Positions 4,138 to 13,301 are shown, counted from the first letter of the stretch. The stretch is 30,888 nucleotides of DNA from a virus (IMGVR_UViG_3300038548_000082:1-30888); one strand, 5' to 3'. Numbers and translations: made by a program. The notes: a model not told the origin generated them from the sequence alone.

Positions 4138-4408
4138 TGTACATGAGGCCAGATAAGAAGCACTGGCAGGAAGCTCCTTGCATGAAGCGCAAGTGTGGAG
4201 TGGCGAACAAAGGCTAGGGAAGTCACGACTCCTGCACAAACGTGACTGAAATAGGTGTCCACCGGGCTACTCTACCCGGCTGTAAGGGCCTACTCAGTGA
4301 CCCCCGTGGAGTAAGGGGACGATTGTTGGATATCAGGGTTGATTAGTGTAGGGAGGTAGGTCGATGCCCTTGACACGTGGCCCAGAACTCTGGTATCCTC
4401 ATTAGACA
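4138..4408 (+). ncRNA. Candidate structured non-coding RNA (~270 nt), family unassigned
   Basis: No listed ORF; ends pair (ATGAGG 4143-48/CCTCAT 4397-4402; CCAGA 4149-53/TCTGG 4389-93); internal hairpins CTTGC/GCAAG, AGTCACG/CGTGACT, CCGGG/CCCGG, TACTC/GAGTA, GGGCC/GGCCC; ends 2 nt before tRNA-Arg. Confidence 0.6.
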
Positions 4409-4410
4409 TT

Positions 4411-4487
4411 GCCCTCATAGCTCAGTGGACTAGAGCATCGGCCTTCTAAGCCGTGTGTCGTAGGTTCGAATCCTACTGGGGGTGCCA
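4411..4487 (+). tRNA. tRNA-Arg (anticodon TCT)
   Basis: Cloverleaf: GCCCTCA/TGGGGGT acceptor, TAGCTCAGTGG D arm, loop CT-TCT-AA, GTAGG-TTCGAAT-CCTAC T arm, encoded CCA. Confidence 0.95.
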
Positions 4488-4493
4488 AATTAA

Positions 4494-4570
4494 GCAGGTG
4501 TGGCAGAGTTGGTTATGCAGTTGACTGCAAATCTTCATAGATATGGGTTCGAGTCCCGTCACCTGCTCCA
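4494..4570 (+). tRNA. tRNA-Cys (anticodon GCA), weak anticodon stem
   Basis: GCAGGTG/CACCTGC acceptor, U73 discriminator, loop CT-GCA-AA, T loop TTCGAGT, encoded CCA. Confidence 0.88.
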
Positions 4571-4591
4571 AATTAGTTTAACGGAGGATTT

Positions 4592-4993
4592 ATGGAACTG
4601 TTAGAAAGAATCAAAGAAGATCGAACAGCAGCACGGAAAGGTACTAGTGCTGTAGATAAAATACGTGCCACACTCCTAACTACGTTAGTTGGTGAAGCTG
4701 AGACAGCCCTTAAAGGTAAACAGGCTAAGAAATTTGATATGTTGGCTCTTGTTAAAAAGTTCCAGAGTAATTGTCATGAAACTCTTGCCATTAAATTTGA
4801 TGAAAAGATTCATATAGAGATTTGTCTTCTTCAAGAATATATTCCAGAACAGTTGACAGAGATAGAACTTTGTGAGAAACTAGTTGAATCGGGTGCAAGC
4901 AACATAGGTCAGTTCATGGGATACCTTAATAAGAGTTATAAAGGTTTGTTCGATGGGAAGCTTGCAGCTAAAGTTGCTAAAACTAACTTGTAA
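4592..4993 (+). CDS. GatB/YqeY-domain protein
   Basis: LLERIKEDRTAARK...IRATLLTTL...LQEYIPEQL...IGQFMGYL pattern typical of YqeY; follows tRNAs. Confidence 0.7.
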   Translation: MELLERIKEDRTAARKGTSAVDKIRATLLTTLVGEAETALKGKQAKKFDMLALVKKFQSNCHETLAIKFDEKIHIEICLLQEYIPEQLTEIELCEKLVESGASNIGQFMGYLNKSYKGLFDGKLAAKVAKTNL

Positions 4994-5004
4994 GGAGATA
5001 CTAG

Positions 5005-5994
5005 ATGGAATTCAAAAAGTATAATAGTCTTGAGAACGTTAAACAGAAGTTGGTAACCGTTATTGAAAACCACGGTTATGCCAACGAGCTTTATGTTGTT
5101 ACTGAGAAGGTCCACGGAGCTAACTTCGGTATCCACTTTGATGTCGATAACAACGACCTTAAGTTTAGTCGCCGGAAAGACTTCCTTGGGGAGACTGAAA
5201 ACTTTTATGGCTACACAGCTATGCTTACTGAGTTCCGAGAAGCTATGGCTTGGATCAGCTCCACAGTAGAGGTAAAAGAAATCCGAATCTTCGGTGAACT
5301 CTTCGGAGGTTCTTTAAACGGACAACAAGGTGATCACGCTAAGTGCGTACAAAGTGAAGTTCAATACAGCCCTAACAACGAGTTCATGGCTTTTGAGCTA
5401 CATTTGGATGGTATCCCTCAACCTTTCAACGTTATGGCTAGCATCTTAAGGGATGCAGGTTTAAAAGTTGTTCCTGTCTTAGGTATGGCTGACAATATCT
5501 ATGACGCATTGAAGTTTGTTAATGACGATAACTCTGTTGTACCTCAGATACTAGGTTACGAAAGCCCTGAAGTAAATATTAAGGAGGGTAATGTAATTGT
5601 ACCAGCTGGTAAGGTTCTTTACTTTGGAAATGGTAAACGTGTTGCTATCAAAGATAAGAACCGTAAGTTCAAAGAAAGCGATAACGAGAAGGTTATCACT
5701 AAGCCTGTGGACTTATCTGAGCAGGGTGAGGTAGTGTTGGCAGCTGTTAACGCTAACTTAACAACTAACCGTTTGTCTAATGTCTTGTCAAAAGAATCTG
5801 TAGAGGGCTTGACAGGTAAAGACTTCGGGCGTATTATGGGTCTTCTTATGCAAGATGCGCTAGCTGAGTACTCTGATGAGTTCACACTAAGTGCCAAGGA
5901 AGTAGCGGGTGAAGAATGGCCTCTGGTGAGTAAAGCACTCATCCGTGAAGCTACAACTTTAACTCGTACTTATTTTATTGAGAATATATTTTAG
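5005..5994 (+). CDS. rnl2: RNA ligase 2 (Rnl2 family)
   Basis: Motif I EKVHGANF, III FGELFGG, IIIa FMAFEL, IV EGNVI, V AIKDKNRKFKE, plus helical C-terminal domain. Confidence 0.9.
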   Translation: MEFKKYNSLENVKQKLVTVIENHGYANELYVVTEKVHGANFGIHFDVDNNDLKFSRRKDFLGETENFYGYTAMLTEFREAMAWISSTVEVKEIRIFGELFGGSLNGQQGDHAKCVQSEVQYSPNNEFMAFELHLDGIPQPFNVMASILRDAGLKVVPVLGMADNIYDALKFVNDDNSVVPQILGYESPEVNIKEGNVIVPAGKVLYFGNGKRVAIKDKNRKFKESDNEKVITKPVDLSEQGEVVLAAVNANLTTNRLSNVLSKESVEGLTGKDFGRIMGLLMQDALAEYSDEFTLSAKEVAGEEWPLVSKALIREATTLTRTYFIENIF

Positions 5995-6990: not shown

Positions 6991-8904
6991 ATGGCTAGAA
7001 AGAAGTTTAAAGAAAAAGAAAGAGGTATTTTCCAAGGACACTGTGCTTGTGTTTTAAAGGAGTGTTTATCCACAGATGCGGGATCATTTTATCTCCATCA
7101 GGATGGAAGTTATTCGTACTACTGCCATTCATGTCACGGGTCTGCGGTTGATTTCGACCCTGAAACAGCAGAAATTATAGATTTTTCAAAGAGACGTGAA
7201 ATCAATTGGGAAGAAGAACAGGAGAAGCTAGAATATGTCAGAGACGACCTCATCCCGGTGGACAACCCCGATAGACGACTCAGGGCTGATGTCTATGAAT
7301 ACTATGGTTGCAGGATGGAAACGGCTAGCGATGGAACTAAAATCGAAGCTATATACTATCCCTCATATCGAGGAGGCGATCACAAGGGCTATCGCAATAG
7401 AAAGAGATTCCAAGGTTGGCATAAGCAAGTAAAGAAGAAGCCAGAACTGTTAGGTGTGCTTAAAGACTTCACAGGAGGTATTGGTGATACCCAAAAAGGT
7501 ATTGACATGTTTGGACAGTGGCTCTTTCCAGCAGGAGGTAAGAGAATCATCATCAACTGTGGTGAAGAGGATGCCTTGACTGTTTGGAAGCTCACAGAGA
7601 TGAAGACAAAGTTTGAAGGTGGTTATCCATCTATCTCTTGTCCATCTGGTGAAAACATAGCATGGGTTAAACCCCATATTAAATATCTTGGTAGTTTCAG
7701 TGAGATTTATATCATTGCAGATCAAGATAAAGCTGGTGCTAAATTCGAAGAAGATCTTTGTAAGATCCTTCCAGTAGGTAAAGTACGAGTCGTGAAGCTT
7801 CCTAGGGGTTATAAAGATCCTTCTAAGATGGTTCAGACCATAGGAATGAAGAAAGCTGCTGATATTCTCTGGAAAGCTATCTGGGACGCTGAGAAGTACT
7901 CTCCTGCGGGGATTATGAGTTTATCTGAAGGATGGGGTCAGTATCGACAACGTGGTCAGGACACGCTTATACGCTTCCCTGAGAGCTTTGGGGATTTAAA
8001 CCATAAAACACATGGTGGCTATGCGTTAGGAGAGATTGTAAATATCATTGCTCCCTCTTCTGTTGGTAAGTCATCCTTTGTTAAGGAAATGATCTACTCA
8101 GCACTAGAGTCTACTAATTATAAGATCGGGGTAATCTCATTAGAAGAGACTATCGATGAGTTTATTGAAGGTATCTTGTCAGTGCATATGAGTACTCAGC
8201 TTAACGAGATCTCTTATGATATGCGTGATTGGGATACTGAAGAAAAAGCTTTCAAAGACTTAGTAAGCCTTAAACCAACAGGGATCAAAGAAGAAGATTT
8301 AGAGCTTGACGAAGATGATAGTGAGCGTGTACAATTCTTAGACCATCAAGGTTCTGTTACTGGGGATGAACTCCTTGAGAAGATAGACTTCTTGGTTAAA
8401 GGTTTGGACTGTAAGATTATTATCGTTGATCCTGTAACGTTAGCGTTCTGTGGTCACGATACTGATGAAGATGATATGGCTTCTGAGATTGTCAAGAGAG
8501 TTAAACGGCATAAACTGGGTTGGATCAATGTACACCATGTTCGTAAGAATGGTAATGGTGGTACAGCTAACTCTGAAGGTGCTGACTTGGCAGAAGAAGA
8601 CATTAAAGGTACAGGTGCTTGGTTCCAAACTGGAATGATCAATCTAATCTTTACTCGTAACAAGGTTCATGACAATACTATCGTGCGTAACACCACTAAG
8701 ATTAAGATGTCTAAGTGTCGTAGGCATGGTAAGAACACTGGTACAGCTGGTTACATCTATTACAATGGTGATAACGGTAGGTTGGAACAGGGTATTAGTC
8801 CTGAGGAAGTCTTGAGTGCGCTGGATGAGGATGGGGAATCTGATAAAGATGTTCCTCTAAATTCTTTCGGAGCTGATGAGAAAGGTAAAGTAGAAACTTG
8901 GTAA
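6991..8904 (+). CDS. DNA primase-helicase (T7 gp4-like)
   Basis: Cys zinc-binding N-terminus, TOPRIM GEEDA and DQDKAG, Walker A APSSVGKS, Walker B IIIVDP, HHVRK, KCRR arginine finger. Confidence 0.92.
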   Translation: MARKKFKEKERGIFQGHCACVLKECLSTDAGSFYLHQDGSYSYYCHSCHGSAVDFDPETAEIIDFSKRREINWEEEQEKLEYVRDDLIPVDNPDRRLRADVYEYYGCRMETASDGTKIEAIYYPSYRGGDHKGYRNRKRFQGWHKQVKKKPELLGVLKDFTGGIGDTQKGIDMFGQWLFPAGGKRIIINCGEEDALTVWKLTEMKTKFEGGYPSISCPSGENIAWVKPHIKYLGSFSEIYIIADQDKAGAKFEEDLCKILPVGKVRVVKLPRGYKDPSKMVQTIGMKKAADILWKAIWDAEKYSPAGIMSLSEGWGQYRQRGQDTLIRFPESFGDLNHKTHGGYALGEIVNIIAPSSVGKSSFVKEMIYSALESTNYKIGVISLEETIDEFIEGILSVHMSTQLNEISYDMRDWDTEEKAFKDLVSLKPTGIKEEDLELDEDDSERVQFLDHQGSVTGDELLEKIDFLVKGLDCKIIIVDPVTLAFCGHDTDEDDMASEIVKRVKRHKLGWINVHHVRKNGNGGTANSEGADLAEEDIKGTGAWFQTGMINLIFTRNKVHDNTIVRNTTKIKMSKCRRHGKNTGTAGYIYYNGDNGRLEQGISPEEVLSALDEDGESDKDVPLNSFGADEKGKVETW

Positions 8905-8910
8905 AAGTAG

Positions 8911-8939
8911 TTGACAGGGGTGTGGAGTTAGGGTAATCT
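8911..8939 (+). promoter_or_regulatory. Sigma70-type promoter
   Basis: TTGACA-17 nt-TAATCT. Confidence 0.7.
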
Positions 8940-8974
8940 AGCTTCACTAACTTGAAACAACACAGGGGATGAGC

Positions 8975-9214
8975 ATGGGTAGAGCACTAAAACACGAATA
9001 TCAAGGTGGTGAGTACTCTTCAAAAGAGTTAGCTAACATTGCAGGTGTTAGCACAAGACTGTTTACCCATCGAGTGAGTACGTGTGGTTGGTCTGTTGAA
9101 GATGCTATCGCAGGTACAAAGACGGAGATCACAGTGGCTAAATCAAAACGTGCAGCAAGGGGTCGTAAACTAACATGTTTTGCTACAACCTTTGGAGTGT
9201 GTAACGCGAAATAA
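8975..9214 (+). CDS. Small putative helix-turn-helix DNA-binding protein
   Basis: SKELANIAGVSTRLFTHRVSTCGWSVEDAI resembles HTH modules found at homing-endonuclease termini; AGGGG RBS. Confidence 0.55.
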   Translation: MGRALKHEYQGGEYSSKELANIAGVSTRLFTHRVSTCGWSVEDAIAGTKTEITVAKSKRAARGRKLTCFATTFGVCNAK

Positions 9215-9217
9215 CTG

Positions 9218-9246
9218 TTGACAGGGTATCCGAAATTAAGTAAGAT
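9218..9246 (+). promoter_or_regulatory. Sigma70-type promoter
   Basis: TTGACA-17 nt-TAAGAT, AACTTAAAC at 9253. Confidence 0.75.
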
Positions 9247-9278
9247 ACTCTCAACTTAAACGGAAAGGGGTTATTATT

Positions 9279-9467
9279 ATGGTTACAGTTGCTTTTGTTG
9301 TAAGTCTTACTTGTTTATTGTGGAGTGTTGCTTCGTTCTTCGCATCACGGAAGATCCCCTTACCAATTTTTCATATGGTAAGTTGTAATGCTACTAACAT
9401 TTATGTTATGTATGGGTCTCTTGGTTATCAAGTTTACTTTTGGGGTAAGTATTTTAATCTTATTTAA
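9279..9467 (+). CDS. Small hydrophobic hypothetical protein
   Basis: 62 aa, two hydrophobic segments, RBS and dedicated promoter. Confidence 0.6.
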   Translation: MVTVAFVVSLTCLLWSVASFFASRKIPLPIFHMVSCNATNIYVMYGSLGYQVYFWGKYFNLI

Positions 9468-9476
9468 AGAAAGTTG

Positions 9477-9505
9477 TTGACAGTTAGTAGGAACCTCTAT
9501 ATACT
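9477..9505 (+). promoter_or_regulatory. Sigma70-type promoter driving the long non-coding region
   Basis: TTGACA-17 nt-TATACT, near consensus; no + strand ORF follows. Confidence 0.8.
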
Positions 9506-9511
9506 GTCATT

Positions 9512-10169
9512 TCGAGTTGAGAGGAAGCACTAACGCTTCTGGCTCAAAAGTCAAGTTTAACAAACCTCTGGCGATGAAAAGGCAGGGAGAGGTAAGGCAA
9601 CCACACCCTCTTCTTGTAGACGAGGCTCCCCGATGCTTTCGAGGCATATAAAGGGCGTCTGAGGGTGATGAAGTACCTCTTAAATAACCATCAGGAGTGA
9701 GAGTCTCAAGACAAGCCAAGCGCACCCTTGAGGTAACCGTTCAAAGCGGCTAGAAGCTGTGGGGTAACCACCCCCATAAGCTATCTAGGGTAGATTGGAG
9801 GCATTCAATCAGACCTACGGTTCAGAGCCGACACTTAACATAGAAGGGCGCTATTCAATCAAATGTCCACAACACAGATTGATTGTTACGTTAGTGGTTA
9901 AACTCCCCGCCGAAACGGGGAACGTTGGTTCGACTCCAACACATACTTGAGGGGAGCTTAGCGGCAAACCTCAGACAATCTGAAAGTCCAAGGGAAGTAC
10001 ACCCCTTGGCAATTGAGTTCCCCTACACTCACTTAGCAAGTAGGGGTCTGCTGTAAGAGGACTCCTTACAAGTGACTTGGGAGGAACGTTAAGAATCCTA
10101 TGAAAGAGTCACATTATACCCTTGTTAAGACCGTGATAATTAAGCGGAGCACTGGCAAGGGCCTTTTTT
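9512..10169 (+). ncRNA. Candidate large structured ncRNA (~660 nt) with an internal tRNA-like module
   Basis: Promoter upstream, hairpin plus T6 at 10119-10169, no + strand ORF in the track, more than 12 hand-identified stems, D/anticodon/T-arm-like element at 9889-9940. Confidence 0.7.
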
Positions 10170-10220
10170 CAAAGTATTTTAACAAAGCTGAAAGGGAAAT
10201 ACCTTAGAAAAAGGAAGTTA

Positions 10221-10229
10221 TGATATACT
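10221..10229 (+). promoter_or_regulatory. Extended -10 promoter-like element upstream of the HNH gene
   Basis: TGATATACT (TGn-TATACT); no good -35. Confidence 0.5.
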
Positions 10230-10261
10230 ACGGGCTTTACTGATTAAAAGAGAGTTACATA

Positions 10262-10948
10262 ATGAGAAAGTGTTTAAGATGTGAGGCCCAGATTCCAGAC
10301 AGCGCACATGGTTTGCGTAAGTTCTGTGGGAAAGTTTGCCAAATTGCAGACGGGACAAGAACCCAACGTAGTAAGTTAACGAATGAAAGCGAGAAGGGTT
10401 GTAATTACTGTAAAGCAATTATCCCACCCCACGCACATGGGCAACGTCAGTTCTGTGATGATAACTGTAAGGATAAGTTCAATAAAGAGAAAATCTACAA
10501 AGGACGGGAAGCAAGAACCTGCAAGCAGTGCGAGAAACCTATCCCTGTAGAAGCACACCACAACGTAAAACATTGTAGCAAGACTTGTAGGTTGCAATTC
10601 TTTTACCATAAAAAGAGAGACAACAGACCAGAAAAGATAATGCTTGATGCTGCCAGAAGTAGGGCTAAAAAAGGGGGTTACCCCTGTACAATTAATGAGG
10701 AGGACATAATCATACCCTCCCATTGTTGCGTACTAGGGCTTAAACTTGAGAGCCAAAGAGATGTACAATGTAGGGCGGCACATAACAGTCCTTCCTTGGA
10801 TAAAATCGTACCCAGTGAAGGGTATGTTAAGGGTAACATAAGGGTGATATCACAAAGAGCTAACGCACTTAAAAGCGATGCTACTTTTGAAGAAATGGAG
10901 GCATTATATAATGATTTTAGACAGCTCAGAGAGGACTCTTGTATTTGA
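10262..10948 (+). CDS. Free-standing His-Me finger (HNH-like) endonuclease with three tandem zinc-finger repeats
   Basis: Three copies of CxxC-x3-IP-xx-AH-x4-C-x3-C; C-terminal SPSLDKIVPSEGYVKGNIRVISQRANALK. Confidence 0.8.
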   Translation: MRKCLRCEAQIPDSAHGLRKFCGKVCQIADGTRTQRSKLTNESEKGCNYCKAIIPPHAHGQRQFCDDNCKDKFNKEKIYKGREARTCKQCEKPIPVEAHHNVKHCSKTCRLQFFYHKKRDNRPEKIMLDAARSRAKKGGYPCTINEEDIIIPSHCCVLGLKLESQRDVQCRAAHNSPSLDKIVPSEGYVKGNIRVISQRANALKSDATFEEMEALYNDFRQLREDSCI

Positions 10949-13301
10949 TTGTGAAGCGAACGGGTTGCTCCACAACGTAACAAGGATGTGGTGTGTAGTT
11001 TGTGAGGACTACGACACAGGGGAATTGTTTTTATTTCACGATTTTCCTCAGTATGATAACTACACTGGGTTAGATGATGAAGGAAAGGAGTTTACTTTAC
11101 CCGTGAGAAACGGCACTCTTAAAGACGGGGTATTGTTCCTTCATCGAGCACAAAGTTTAGTGGCACATAACTGCATTGGCTATGACCTTTTCTTACTTAA
11201 AATGTTCTACCCCAAGTTTAGAATCAGATATAGCTATCCTGAAATCAGAGACACATTACTTGAAAGTCAAGTGCTTTGGTATGATAGGAAACCTGTTAAA
11301 GGTTACAAAGGTATTCACGGCTTAGCAGTATGGGGAGCAAGGTTAGGTATTCGCAAGCCAGAGATTGAAGATTGGTCTTTTATGGATGCACAGAAGCTTC
11401 ACCGTTGTTTGGAAGATGTCAAGATTAACACTGCGGTTGCAAAACAACTTGACACCGAGAAACAATGGCTGTATGATAACTGCAACGGTATTGAATTTGA
11501 TGAAGCTCTGGAGACAGAGAATGAGTATCGATACTGGTCAACCATACAAGAACTTAACGGAGCCTTAGTAGATGCACCCCACATGAGAGAGTGTTGTGTG
11601 GAGCTTGATGTGCTTCTCGAAGCGTTGAGAGTTGAAATCGAGCCTATGCTTCCACCATCGATTAATGTGAAGTCTGTTAGAGCGTCTTCTCATGAGGTTG
11701 CTACCTTAGTTGGCTCTAGGGTTATACCTAAAGAGAGAGCAGTGTGGAAGACAAAGAAAGGGGAAAGCTACCAAAGCATTGTTAAAACAATGTACAAACC
11801 AACCATGAGAGTCTTTAAAGTTTCTAAACAGAAAATGTATGCAGTTGTCATTGATGGAGAGGAGGTTAAAGGGCATGAGTTCCCGAAAGTTAAAGAAGCG
11901 CGTGAGTGGACAAAGGAGAACTATCCTGCGGTTAAAGGGATTAAGTACCCTTGGGTTGAAGTCGAATCAACAGAGTATGACAGACACACAAAAAACCACT
12001 TCGGAGACGAGCTTGACGGAAATACAGAAGTTGTAGGACCGTACACGAAGATTGAATTTGAAAAGTCCCGTATGTCTCAACACGAGAAAGTTAAACTACT
12101 CTTAGTTACGCTCGGTTGGCAGACAGACGAATGGACTTTCAGAAAGGATTCAGAAGGTCAGTTCATACGAGCTGAAGAAAGTGGTATCGTTTATTGGCCT
12201 GAGAAGCCCATACAAGGTAAACAGTTGAGTGAGAAGTATAAAAAGGGGGATAGGCTACCAGCCACTCCAAAAGTTACTAAAGATTCTTTTCACTGGTTAC
12301 CTGAAGGGTTTGGACAGAAAATAAAAGAGTACAATACGTACTCACATCGGCGTAAATTCATCGAGAACCCTGCCAAGGATGACAAAGGGTTGCTCAATAA
12401 TATACGCGATGATGGTCGTGTAAGCTGTGGCTTAATGACCTTTGGCACCACTGCTGGTCGTGCTGCCCAATATGGTTGGGTAAACGCTCCGAGTGTGCAA
12501 GCCTTGTATGGTGAGAACATCAGGAAGATTATTATAGCTCCTGAAGGTTCGAAGCTGATTGGTATTGATATGCCTAGTGCTCACCCACGGTTGCTAGCAG
12601 ACTTTACGCAGAATGAAATGTTCATAGCAGCAGTTGATGGAAAGGAGGAGGATGAGGATGGAAACTATGTCGGAGAAGATTTCCACACAGTCAACAGTGT
12701 GTTGTTCCGACTTAACACTAATGAAGATGTTGTCTATTGTAGAGAGTCACAGGCTCACGATGACAGAAGATCAGGTGTTGATGCAGGGCGTAAGAAAGGT
12801 AAGGGAGGCTCTTATTGCACACTCTATGGAGGTTCCGATAAGAAGCTTGCACTCACCTTGGGAATCGCTGAGAAGCTTGGGGCTGAGCTTAAAAAGTCCT
12901 TCCTCAGCGGCCTTGGCCTTGACTTGTTGTTAGAAGAGGTAAGTAGCACTTGGAAGAAACAGAAGCGTGATAAAGGTTCTTATATCTCGGTTCTTGGTGG
13001 CTACCACGCTTGGAGTAATTCTAAGCATAAAATTATTAACTTTAAAGCTTTGGGTTCTGAAGCAGTAGTACAGAAAAGAGCAGTCATCTTGTTATGCAGG
13101 AAGTTTAGAGATATGAATCTCAAATCAAAATTAATCCTGAACATTCATGATGAAGTTCTTTTGGAAGTACCTGATGAAGAAGTCGAAATTGTAAAACCTA
13201 TTGCTGCTCGTATGTATGTCGAAGCAGCACTTGAACTTGGCTTGACGCTTGATTGGATCTCTACCGCTAAGGTTGGAATCGATTATGCTAAGTGCCACTA
13301 G
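10911..13301 (+). CDS. DNA polymerase, family A (T7-like) with 3'-5' exonuclease
   Basis: ExoI FDCEANGL, ExoII HNCIGYDL, motif A GIDMPSAHPR, motif B RKKGKGGSYCTLYG, motif C IHDE; start at ATG 10911 (GGAGG RBS). Confidence 0.93.
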   Translation: MILDSSERTLVFDCEANGLLHNVTRMWCVVCEDYDTGELFLFHDFPQYDNYTGLDDEGKEFTLPVRNGTLKDGVLFLHRAQSLVAHNCIGYDLFLLKMFYPKFRIRYSYPEIRDTLLESQVLWYDRKPVKGYKGIHGLAVWGARLGIRKPEIEDWSFMDAQKLHRCLEDVKINTAVAKQLDTEKQWLYDNCNGIEFDEALETENEYRYWSTIQELNGALVDAPHMRECCVELDVLLEALRVEIEPMLPPSINVKSVRASSHEVATLVGSRVIPKERAVWKTKKGESYQSIVKTMYKPTMRVFKVSKQKMYAVVIDGEEVKGHEFPKVKEAREWTKENYPAVKGIKYPWVEVESTEYDRHTKNHFGDELDGNTEVVGPYTKIEFEKSRMSQHEKVKLLLVTLGWQTDEWTFRKDSEGQFIRAEESGIVYWPEKPIQGKQLSEKYKKGDRLPATPKVTKDSFHWLPEGFGQKIKEYNTYSHRRKFIENPAKDDKGLLNNIRDDGRVSCGLMTFGTTAGRAAQYGWVNAPSVQALYGENIRKIIIAPEGSKLIGIDMPSAHPRLLADFTQNEMFIAAVDGKEEDEDGNYVGEDFHTVNSVLFRLNTNEDVVYCRESQAHDDRRSGVDAGRKKGKGGSYCTLYGGSDKKLALTLGIAEKLGAELKKSFLSGLGLDLLLEEVSSTWKKQKRDKGSYISVLGGYHAWSNSKHKIINFKALGSEAVVQKRAVILLCRKFRDMNLKSKLILNIHDEVLLEVPDEEVEIVKPIAARMYVEAALELGLTLDWISTAKVGIDYAKCH

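Follow-up and report, generated by a model that had tools for sequence, protein, structure and literature searches.

A candidate family of modular, structured RNAs upstream of the DNA polymerase gene in a clade of uncultured marine phages

What does a phage keep in a gene-free stretch of about 660 nucleotides (nt) within its replication module? The stretch in question, positions 9512-10169, lies in the opening 30.9 kb of an IMG/VR phage genome that is 94.9 kb long and has direct terminal repeats (IMGVR_UViG_3300038548_000082:1-30888; this whole stretch of 30,888 nt is referred to as the window). All genes of the window are on the + strand, as are all features described below, and the region is flanked by an open reading frame (ORF) of 62 amino acids (aa), which ends at 9467, and by an endonuclease gene, which starts at 10262. 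The order in the genome is primase(-helicase) gene, RNA region and the gene of the DNA polymerase PolA (pol). An earlier note on this DNA had proposed a single large, ornate non-coding RNA with its own promoter and terminator. The sequence comparisons reported here support a previously undescribed, modular structured RNA family without a match in Rfam 15, and we lean towards the reading that a non-coding RNA of this family is transcribed here from a separate unit and acts in trans.

The + strand of 9512-10169 contains ORFs of 35-51 aa only, three of the four starting with TTG, and none of them is kept as an ORF in the homologues described below when these are compared in six frames. The similarity among the homologues appears in blocks of 10-50 aa in all frames and on both strands, a pattern typical of nucleotide rather than protein conservation. 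Folding of the 658 nt yields a minimum free energy (MFE) of -218 kcal/mol, which corresponds to z = -4.67 for the + strand against dinucleotide shuffles, whereas the reverse complement (- strand) has a z of -1.22. The excess folding of the region is real and strand-specific, and thus both the lack of a conserved + strand ORF over about 660 nt and the folding of nearly the whole span, as claimed in the earlier note, are borne out. Moreover, the GC content rises up to 0.47 at 9601-10200, where the GC skew, otherwise constant in the window, collapses.

The predicted non-coding primary transcript is about 658 nt long (9512-10169), as judged from promoter, terminator, ORF and folding evidence. Its start at about 9512 is predicted from a sigma-70-type promoter, TTGACA-17-TATACT (9477-9505), which the earlier note had already called near-consensus: it has 11 of 12 consensus matches, is the top promoter-like site within 8800-11000 and is kept as TTGACA-17-TAnAnT at the same place in the homologues L079, L084, L003, L004 and L008. 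At the other end, CCCTTG (10119-10124) pairs with CAAGGG (10156-10161) and is followed by T6 at 10164-10169, so that the claimed terminator reads as described, and its stem is backed by the comparative data. It is a two-storey hairpin, in which an internal loop separates a lower stem of 9 bp from an upper stem of 3 bp and which is followed by the T-run, and since its "loop" amounts to 31 nt it is missed by a simple terminator scan. Because a strong host-type promoter is combined with a terminator, the unit resembles that of a stable RNA. The DNA of the window was found in one sequencing run, a DNA run of a metagenome from marine sediment, possibly the sample from which the genome came, and no RNA sequencing run is among the listed holders of this DNA.

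Homologues were searched with the primase-helicase and PolA proteins as anchors, then with nhmmer and two covariance models, R1 and R2. Nine were found in related uncultured phages, and the family comprises 10 loci including the window: L003, L004 and L008, all from one JGI sample, L079/L080/L081, which stands for three SRA runs, L084 and L110 (ENA), L087 (SRA), and L088 and the degenerate L089 (NCBI assemblies). The homologue search suggested in the earlier note thus led to the same syntenic slot throughout, as every homologue sits between the primase-helicase and PolA genes. The carriers form one phage clade with PolA proteins at least 62% identical to that of the window, and PolA relatives at 39% identity or less gave no match to model R1. 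The PolA proteins of these marine phages are nearest to those of Aeromonas, Shewanella and Alteromonas phages. When 9400-10260 was compared with 50,697 phage records by blastn in distant mode, nothing matched. Pattern scans of viral contigs returned only L003, L004 and L008, the remaining matches, including L054 and L055, being chance matches in coding DNA; one metagenome pattern scan gave 23 chance matches and no homologue, and a degenerate pattern run on a genome collection hit, among the matches listed, mostly GC-rich actinomycete genomes, none of them convincing against the model. One of these, L120, gave a partial match of 24.6 bits, which was treated as chance. Gene-free gaps of 600-720 nt upstream of pol are present in the contigs of P0006 and P0008, while P0012 has other content; these three contigs were not part of the sequence comparison. 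As far as found, the RNA family is confined to one clade of uncultured marine phages with genomes of about 95 kb.

Even within this clade the RNA is not always present. L002, the closest IMG/VR relative (81% primase identity), has the same promoter, 80% identical over 51 nt, which is followed by small ORFs, and in L005 the promoter stands directly before pol. The RNA is also missing from L085, L109, L082 and L006. Because closely related phages do without it, the RNA is to be seen as an accessory cassette of the clade. This touches the argument of the earlier note that a compact genome would not keep so much non-coding DNA without function: the RNA is indeed conserved, but the argument is weaker than it looked, as close relatives lack the element.

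The sole module present in all 10 loci is a 3' domain of about 160 nt (10012-10169; models R1 and R2), the last helix of which is the terminator. It starts with helix Pa (10020-10026/10040-10046), which is followed by a UCUGCU linker, and helix Pb (10053-10057/10065-10069) with a 7-nt AGGRYNN loop. Next, helix Pd (10072-10078/10106-10112) encloses Pc (10082-10085/10096-10099), which has the loop ACGTTAAGAA, and the terminator consists of the lower stem 10119-10127/10153-10161, an internal loop AGA/AGCAC, the upper stem 10131-10133/10145-10147 and T6 at 10164-10169. The model was built from nine sequences and six helices of the window fold, and the realignment holds the 10 true members plus one stray of 9.7 bits. 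Over the 35 counted pairs of this model-fitted alignment, 88.1% of the cells are paired, against 67.3 +/- 1.8% in column shuffles, compensatory changes occur in 25 of the 35 pairs, and the covariation score is 0.486 compared to 0.178 in shuffles. None of 500 shuffles reaches any of these measures, and pairing falls to 27-46% when the partners are slid by 1-3 columns. Furthermore, the MFE folds of each single sequence, which are independent of the model, give the same helices, and a plain MAFFT/RNAalifold pass had earlier recovered two of them with compensatory changes.

Two further modules, core A and core B, show the same behavior. Core A is 98.9% paired with four compensatory pairs in an unfitted MAFFT alignment of five sequences, and core B is 98% paired, compared to 78% in shuffles, with compensatory changes in six of 10 pairs. 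Identity to the window is 83-92% for core A and 70-74% for core B, whereas pol is 62-75% identical overall and 39-52% at third-codon positions; to judge from this comparison, the cores are under purifying selection. Since the identity of the cores exceeds that of pol third positions, the helices covary and no ORF is shared, the region is best described as a constrained RNA, and neither as a decaying tRNA array nor as a peptide gene. Two further pairings were considered and rejected. For a long-range pairing of UCUUAA in core A with the UUAAGA motif, which occurs twice in the 3' domain, the contrary observation is that this motif persists in members without core A. A helix between GGGTAG and the 3' flank of hairpin B1 does not hold in L088 and L004, where its pairing is disrupted.

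Full copies begin at the TTGACA-17-TAnAnT promoter and finish in the intrinsic terminator, with the modules in the order leader hairpin, tRNA or decayed unit, core A, variable hairpin, T-arm-like hairpin 1, variable hairpin, core B, junction helix, linker and 3' domain. Total lengths range from about 170 to about 780 nt, the longest being L079 (about 780 nt). L008 consists of leader, tRNA-like unit and 3' domain only, L087 of the 3' domain only, and L084 has no cores. L110 has a tRNA-like unit, and the two hairpins with which its 3' domain begins are duplicated in tandem; the duplicated hairpins (L110:1985-2110) read Pa-CUGC-Pb, and the preceding tRNA-like unit is sub-threshold at 26 bits.

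The 5' part of the window RNA starts with a leader hairpin of type I (9517-9547), one of two leader types, with an outer TTGAG/CTCAA and an inner GAAGC/GCTTC stem and an apical insert whose size varies among members. Its 11 pairs are kept in the window, L079, L088 and L084, two of them with compensatory changes, and both stems had been named in the earlier note. The variable segment that follows (9548-9623) takes the position of genuine tRNAs in L003 (tRNA-Pro, 38 bits) and L004 (tRNA-Gln, 40 bits), both above the Rfam cut-off, while the other members carry unrelated or decayed sequence here. Part of the segment aligns weakly to the T-arm region of these tRNAs in nhmmer, which suggests that it is a decayed tRNA remnant.

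Core A (9624-9695) has a helix 9624-9630/9653-9659 that encloses the hairpin 9633-9636/9644-9647, and a second helix TGATG 9666-9670/CATCA 9689-9693. A pseudoknot of GAGG 9661-9664 with CCTC 9676-9679 is possible, both strands being invariant. In the adjacent segment (9696-9735) the window has the hairpin CTCAAG 9705-9710/CTTGAG 9727-9732, and a hairpin of unrelated sequence can be read directly at this position in each relative. T-arm-like hairpin 1 (9736-9750; CCG-TTCAAAG-CGG) was read directly in five sequences; its stem of 3-4 bp varies between CCG/CGG, CTG/CAG, CAG/CTG and ACCG/CGGT around a 7-nt TTCAAAK loop, presumably a T-loop. It is followed by a long variable hairpin, CTAGA..TCTAG (9750-9788), where L004 has a further tRNA-like unit. 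Core B (9788-9851) contains the hairpin GATTGGA-GGCA-TTCAATC (9793-9810) and T-arm-like hairpin 2, CGG-TTCAGAG-CCG (9818-9830).

The junction helix CAGATTG 9875-9881/CAATCTG 9976-9982 (module 9875-9982) encloses a tRNA-derived unit and an extra hairpin, and it recurs in relatives, where CAGATCG/CGATCTG (L008), CAGAT/ATCTG (L088) and CAGG/CCTG (L084) were read directly as its counterparts. The enclosed unit (9880-9948) scores 24.6 bits against RF00005, which is below the gathering cut-off of 29 bits, and ARAGORN detects neither a tRNA nor a tmRNA in 9512-10169. Its anticodon-like loop has 6 nt instead of the 7 of a tRNA, and the extra hairpin stands between its T arm and the 3' strand of the enclosing helix. 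By these measures the unit is tRNA-derived without looking like a functional tRNA. Finally, the linker (9983-10019) consists of AAAGTCC, the hairpin CCAAGGG 9988-9994/CCCTTGG 10003-10009 and GGCAAYTG; it is common to the window, L008, L088 and L084, as read directly from the sequences without a formal count.

These modules allow a judgment on the stems that had been listed from the window alone. Covariation, for which the earlier note had suggested to look, is seen as compensatory changes in helices of the leader, of both cores and of the 3' domain. CCCCTAC/GTAGGGG, TGTAAG/CTTACA and GTGACT/AGTCAC are backed by the 3'-domain counts and GATTGGA-GGCA-TTCAATC by the core B comparison; CCAAGGG/CCCTTGG is the hairpin of the shared linker. 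Two stems find no support: AGACG/CGTCT is not conserved, as relatives pair GGC.CCC (9624-9630) with GGG.GTC (9653-9659) instead, and CAATCAA/TTGATTG competes with the recurrent junction helix. For CTCAAG/CTTGAG only the position of the hairpin is kept, but not its sequence. Similarly, the embedded tRNA-like unit is tRNA-derived, although it stays under the tRNA cut-off, and the picture of one ornate RNA holds for a structured unit that is nevertheless a mosaic of modules rather than one uniformly conserved fold.

Does this RNA belong to a known family? With Rfam 15 at gathering thresholds, cmscan found nothing at 9512-10169 and, elsewhere in the window, a group I intron and two tRNAs. All 4227 Rfam families at E <= 10 gave only noise in the RNA region, and the eight homologue loci that were scanned at E <= 1 gave tRNAs and noise only. 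The models of the giant phage RNAs GOLLD (RF02032; 416 positions, gathering threshold 150 bits) and ROOL (RF03087; 99 bits) matched nothing when the complete genome of 94.9 kb was searched at E <= 10, and control genomes gave no ROOL match either, which agrees with the statement of the earlier note that the RNA could not be assigned to either of them. No publication describing the RNA was found in a literature search.

The reading towards which we lean proposes the following path. Transcribed by host RNA polymerase, the RNA would be stable and would appear early and in large amounts. In L003 and L004 a distance of 1-9 nt separates the end of the tRNA from the first core A helix, and ordinary tRNA 3' processing would for this reason create the 5' end of the structured RNA: RNase P together with RNase Z/E would free the tRNA and leave the 5' end at GGCUCCCC. 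The stable RNAs of the phage T4 tRNA cluster likewise obtain their 5' ends from tRNA processing. A tRNA directly before the RNA is also the processing arrangement reported for some GOLLD RNAs (PMC12286853 / bioRxiv 10.1101/2024.12.08.627333). The window RNA may have retained its decayed tRNA-like units, together with both T-arm-like hairpins, as structural or recognition modules, and the mature RNA would then act in trans as a tRNA-mimicking scaffold or decoy that is tied to the tRNA economy of the phage. The phage has a toolkit of 17 tRNA genes. At 4411-5994 the genes of two tRNAs are followed by those of a YqeY-like protein, which is "tRNA amidotransferase" in PHROG, and of an Rnl2-type RNA ligase, an ORF of 412 aa for a PolyA_pol/CCA-adding-type nucleotidyltransferase lies just outside the window (G000:C1:32152-32508), and an island of about 15-16 tRNAs, with one sub-threshold tRNA-Sec-like match, is located at G000:C1:51651-55696. 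A scaffold or decoy role is favored because of the tRNA-adjacent arrangement and this heavy investment in tRNAs, and it is the weakest step of the explanation.

Several points speak against a trans-acting RNA of this kind. Transcript size, processing sites and stability are inferred, and the tie to tRNA metabolism consists of co-location and shared module ancestry only. The covariation was counted on an alignment that was fitted to the model and thus leans towards it, and it comes from 10 loci, some of which originate from one sample. The RNA is dispensable, as the phages of L002, L005, L085, L109 and L082 lack it. Finally, only the 3' domain is universal, always as the last element before pol or before the endonuclease gene that overlaps pol, and this position suits a cis-acting leader at least as well as a trans RNA; in L079 the start codon of pol follows the weak T-run by only about 23 nt.

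The main rival is accordingly that the element serves the (endonuclease-)polA operon as a cis-acting leader or attenuator, and we regard this as possible, though clearly on the unlikely side. Under this explanation the terminator is a regulated stop, and read-through, perhaps controlled via a bound protein or metabolite, sets the polymerase level. The promoter of the RNA directly drives pol in L005 and a block of small ORFs and pol in L002, the ribosome-binding site of pol in L079 lies about 15 nt after the weak T-run (TTTTC), which leaves no room for another promoter, and the conserved internal loop of the terminator stem (TTAAGA/AGCACTG) is unusual for a plain terminator. This loop and a second loop, TTAAGAA, could be protein-binding sites whether the RNA acts in cis or in trans. 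Like a riboswitch or attenuator leader, the element is structured, has its terminator immediately before a gene and shares the promoter of that gene; it differs in being optional among close relatives, in containing tRNA genes and in having no known aptamer fold. The size range of 170-780 nt is hard to reconcile with a leader, and processing of the tRNAs inside would sever it from the mRNA. No conserved antiterminator alternative was seen in the family alignments and folds, in a search that was not exhaustive. Moreover, the extended -10-like sequence TGATATACT precedes the endonuclease gene of the window and a TTGTAT-16-TATAAT site follows the terminator in L003, and because of these promoter-like sites pol need not depend on read-through. 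In L005 and L085 pol is apparently expressed without the element altogether.

It is much less probable that the locus is a decaying tRNA array or a recombination scar without a function of its own, with stems that are tRNA leftovers or due to chance. The tRNA-derived modules, namely the unit at 9880-9948 and the T-arm-like hairpins, would fit such an origin, as would the mosaic locus that is absent from close relatives and the apparently degenerate copy in L089. However, decay does not explain why the cores are 70-92% identical while pol third-codon positions are at 39-52%, why compensatory changes keep the helices, and why promoter and terminator are kept in all full copies.

Just as improbable is a very divergent GOLLD or ROOL member that is beyond the reach of the Rfam models. 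GOLLD is a phage-encoded RNA with a universally conserved 3' region, a less conserved 5' part and tRNAs that sometimes lie inside the variable part, one marine example being located downstream of a tRNA-Met, and ROOL is a large structured RNA of phages and prophages that is often found near tRNAs and has no known protein partner (PMC12286853 / bioRxiv 10.1101/2024.12.08.627333). The window RNA shares the general GOLLD layout, as it is phage-borne, large, multi-helical and marine with a conserved 3' and a variable 5' part and nested tRNAs, but this is a likeness of layout only and not homology. Its conserved 3' domain has about 160 nt, compared to about 400 in GOLLD (the 416-position core), it adjoins polA in the replication module rather than the phage tRNA island at 51.6-55.7 kb, and the models had no match in the region, the homologue loci or the whole genome. 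ROOL, another large structured phage RNA, has been described from Bacillota-type hosts and rumen samples, whereas the window RNA comes from marine phages and does not match the ROOL model.

More distant resemblances exist as well. Species 1 and 2 of phage T4 (RNA C and D) are stable RNAs of about 120-140 nt inside the tRNA cluster, which are made on the same transcripts as the tRNAs, are freed by tRNA-processing enzymes and have an unknown function; compared by description, the window RNA is far larger and has its own terminator. Bacterial YrlA/Y RNAs, viral tRNA-like structures and mascRNA carry a T-arm/D-arm-like unit inside a larger RNA and might be recognized by tRNA enzymes, whereas the members of the window family can do without the tRNA-like unit, which is one module among several. 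In the RNA region, neither YrlA nor any family of tRNA-like structures in Rfam gave a match, and the idea of a Y RNA was dropped as there is no TROVE/Ro protein in the genome. An RNase P-like reading of GAAAGUCC was rejected as well, since no RNase P match was found and the motif is absent from L003 and L004. Equally, the region is not a group I intron: RF00028 matches nothing at 9512-10169, and the flanks are a promoter and an endonuclease gene rather than exons.

Least credible of all is an mRNA for one or several small peptides, as the short + strand ORFs and several purine-rich, Shine-Dalgarno-like runs are outweighed by TTG starts in three of four ORFs, an unconserved ATG at 10100 (relatives show GTG, TTG or no start codon), similarity blocks in all frames on both strands, and indels that are not multiples of three.

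To our knowledge, few large non-coding RNAs are supported by covariation apart from those of the ribosome, RNase P, introns and riboswitches. Among those of phages, GOLLD and ROOL were recently proved to be RNA-only nanocages, and their function is unknown. If the RNA described here is an unrelated family with the same design logic, phages would have invented the tRNA-linked ornate RNA more than once. With its universal core of about 160 nt, it would be a smaller system for asking what such RNAs do, and the natural variants, from the 3' domain alone through the addition of a tRNA to the addition of the cores, together with relatives that lack the element, represent a ready-made deletion series. 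As a long shot, this could even be a third independent class of phage ornate RNA, namely an RNA-only higher-order particle with tethered tRNA or tRNA-like units, in which the paired T-loop hairpins dock tRNA elbows or tRNA-directed host enzymes such as anticodon nucleases, and which protects or manages the phage tRNA pool. Should the leader explanation be true, a phage DNA polymerase would be under the control of an unusual structured element.

The promoter together with the first about 30 transcribed bases (ATCAAnnAAGGAG..) is a repeated cassette, found at L005:8112-8180, L003:3735-3800 and L008:1380-1445 and 1605-1685. In L005 it is pol that is driven by this cassette, in L003 and L004 it is the RNA, and in L008 both the RNA and a small ORF. 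Because the cassette is repeated before protein genes, the 5' arm of the type II leader hairpin appears to be homologous to an ordinary 5' untranslated region with a Shine-Dalgarno sequence.

The slot itself can be filled differently. In L006 (79% primase identity), about six tandem copies of a unit of about 120 bp (L006:3470-4170) replace the RNA upstream of a homologous endonuclease gene; in each unit, a (C/G)AGT-rich run precedes an inverted repeat (TAGAAC(C/T)TAGTTCTAA) and a Shine-Dalgarno-like TAGGAGG. In L082 (77% PolA identity), the same slot (L082:4480-4630) holds about 150 nt of unrelated, ORF-free sequence with a G8 run and a terminator-like end, which matches neither model R1 nor R2.

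Downstream of the RNA and outside of it, 10262-10948 encodes a free-standing HNH/EndoVII-family endonuclease with three Cys-rich repeats (PHROG 3322 "endonuclease", E = 6.6e-30), which overlaps the start of polA. Homologues are located 3' of the RNA in L004 and are present in L006, which has no RNA. In L084 (4925-5000) and L082 (4955-5000) the endonuclease gene is absent, and a short C-terminal coding remnant (..EEME..LND..) lies directly upstream of pol. Due to these remnants, the endonuclease-pol overlap, which carries the ribosome-binding site of pol, seems to be ancestral and the endonuclease repeatedly lost.

Two other loci of the window are of note. An ORF-free, GC-richer stretch of about 270 nt (4138-4408) lies directly upstream of the genes for tRNA-Arg and tRNA-Cys (4411-4570); it matches no Rfam family, does not resemble the RNA of 9512-10169, and may be another structured RNA that is co-transcribed with the tRNAs. 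Furthermore, the group I intron (Rfam, 66 bits) is located at 1359-1631 between the ORFs 566-1411 and 1663-2046, the latter of which is probably intron-encoded.
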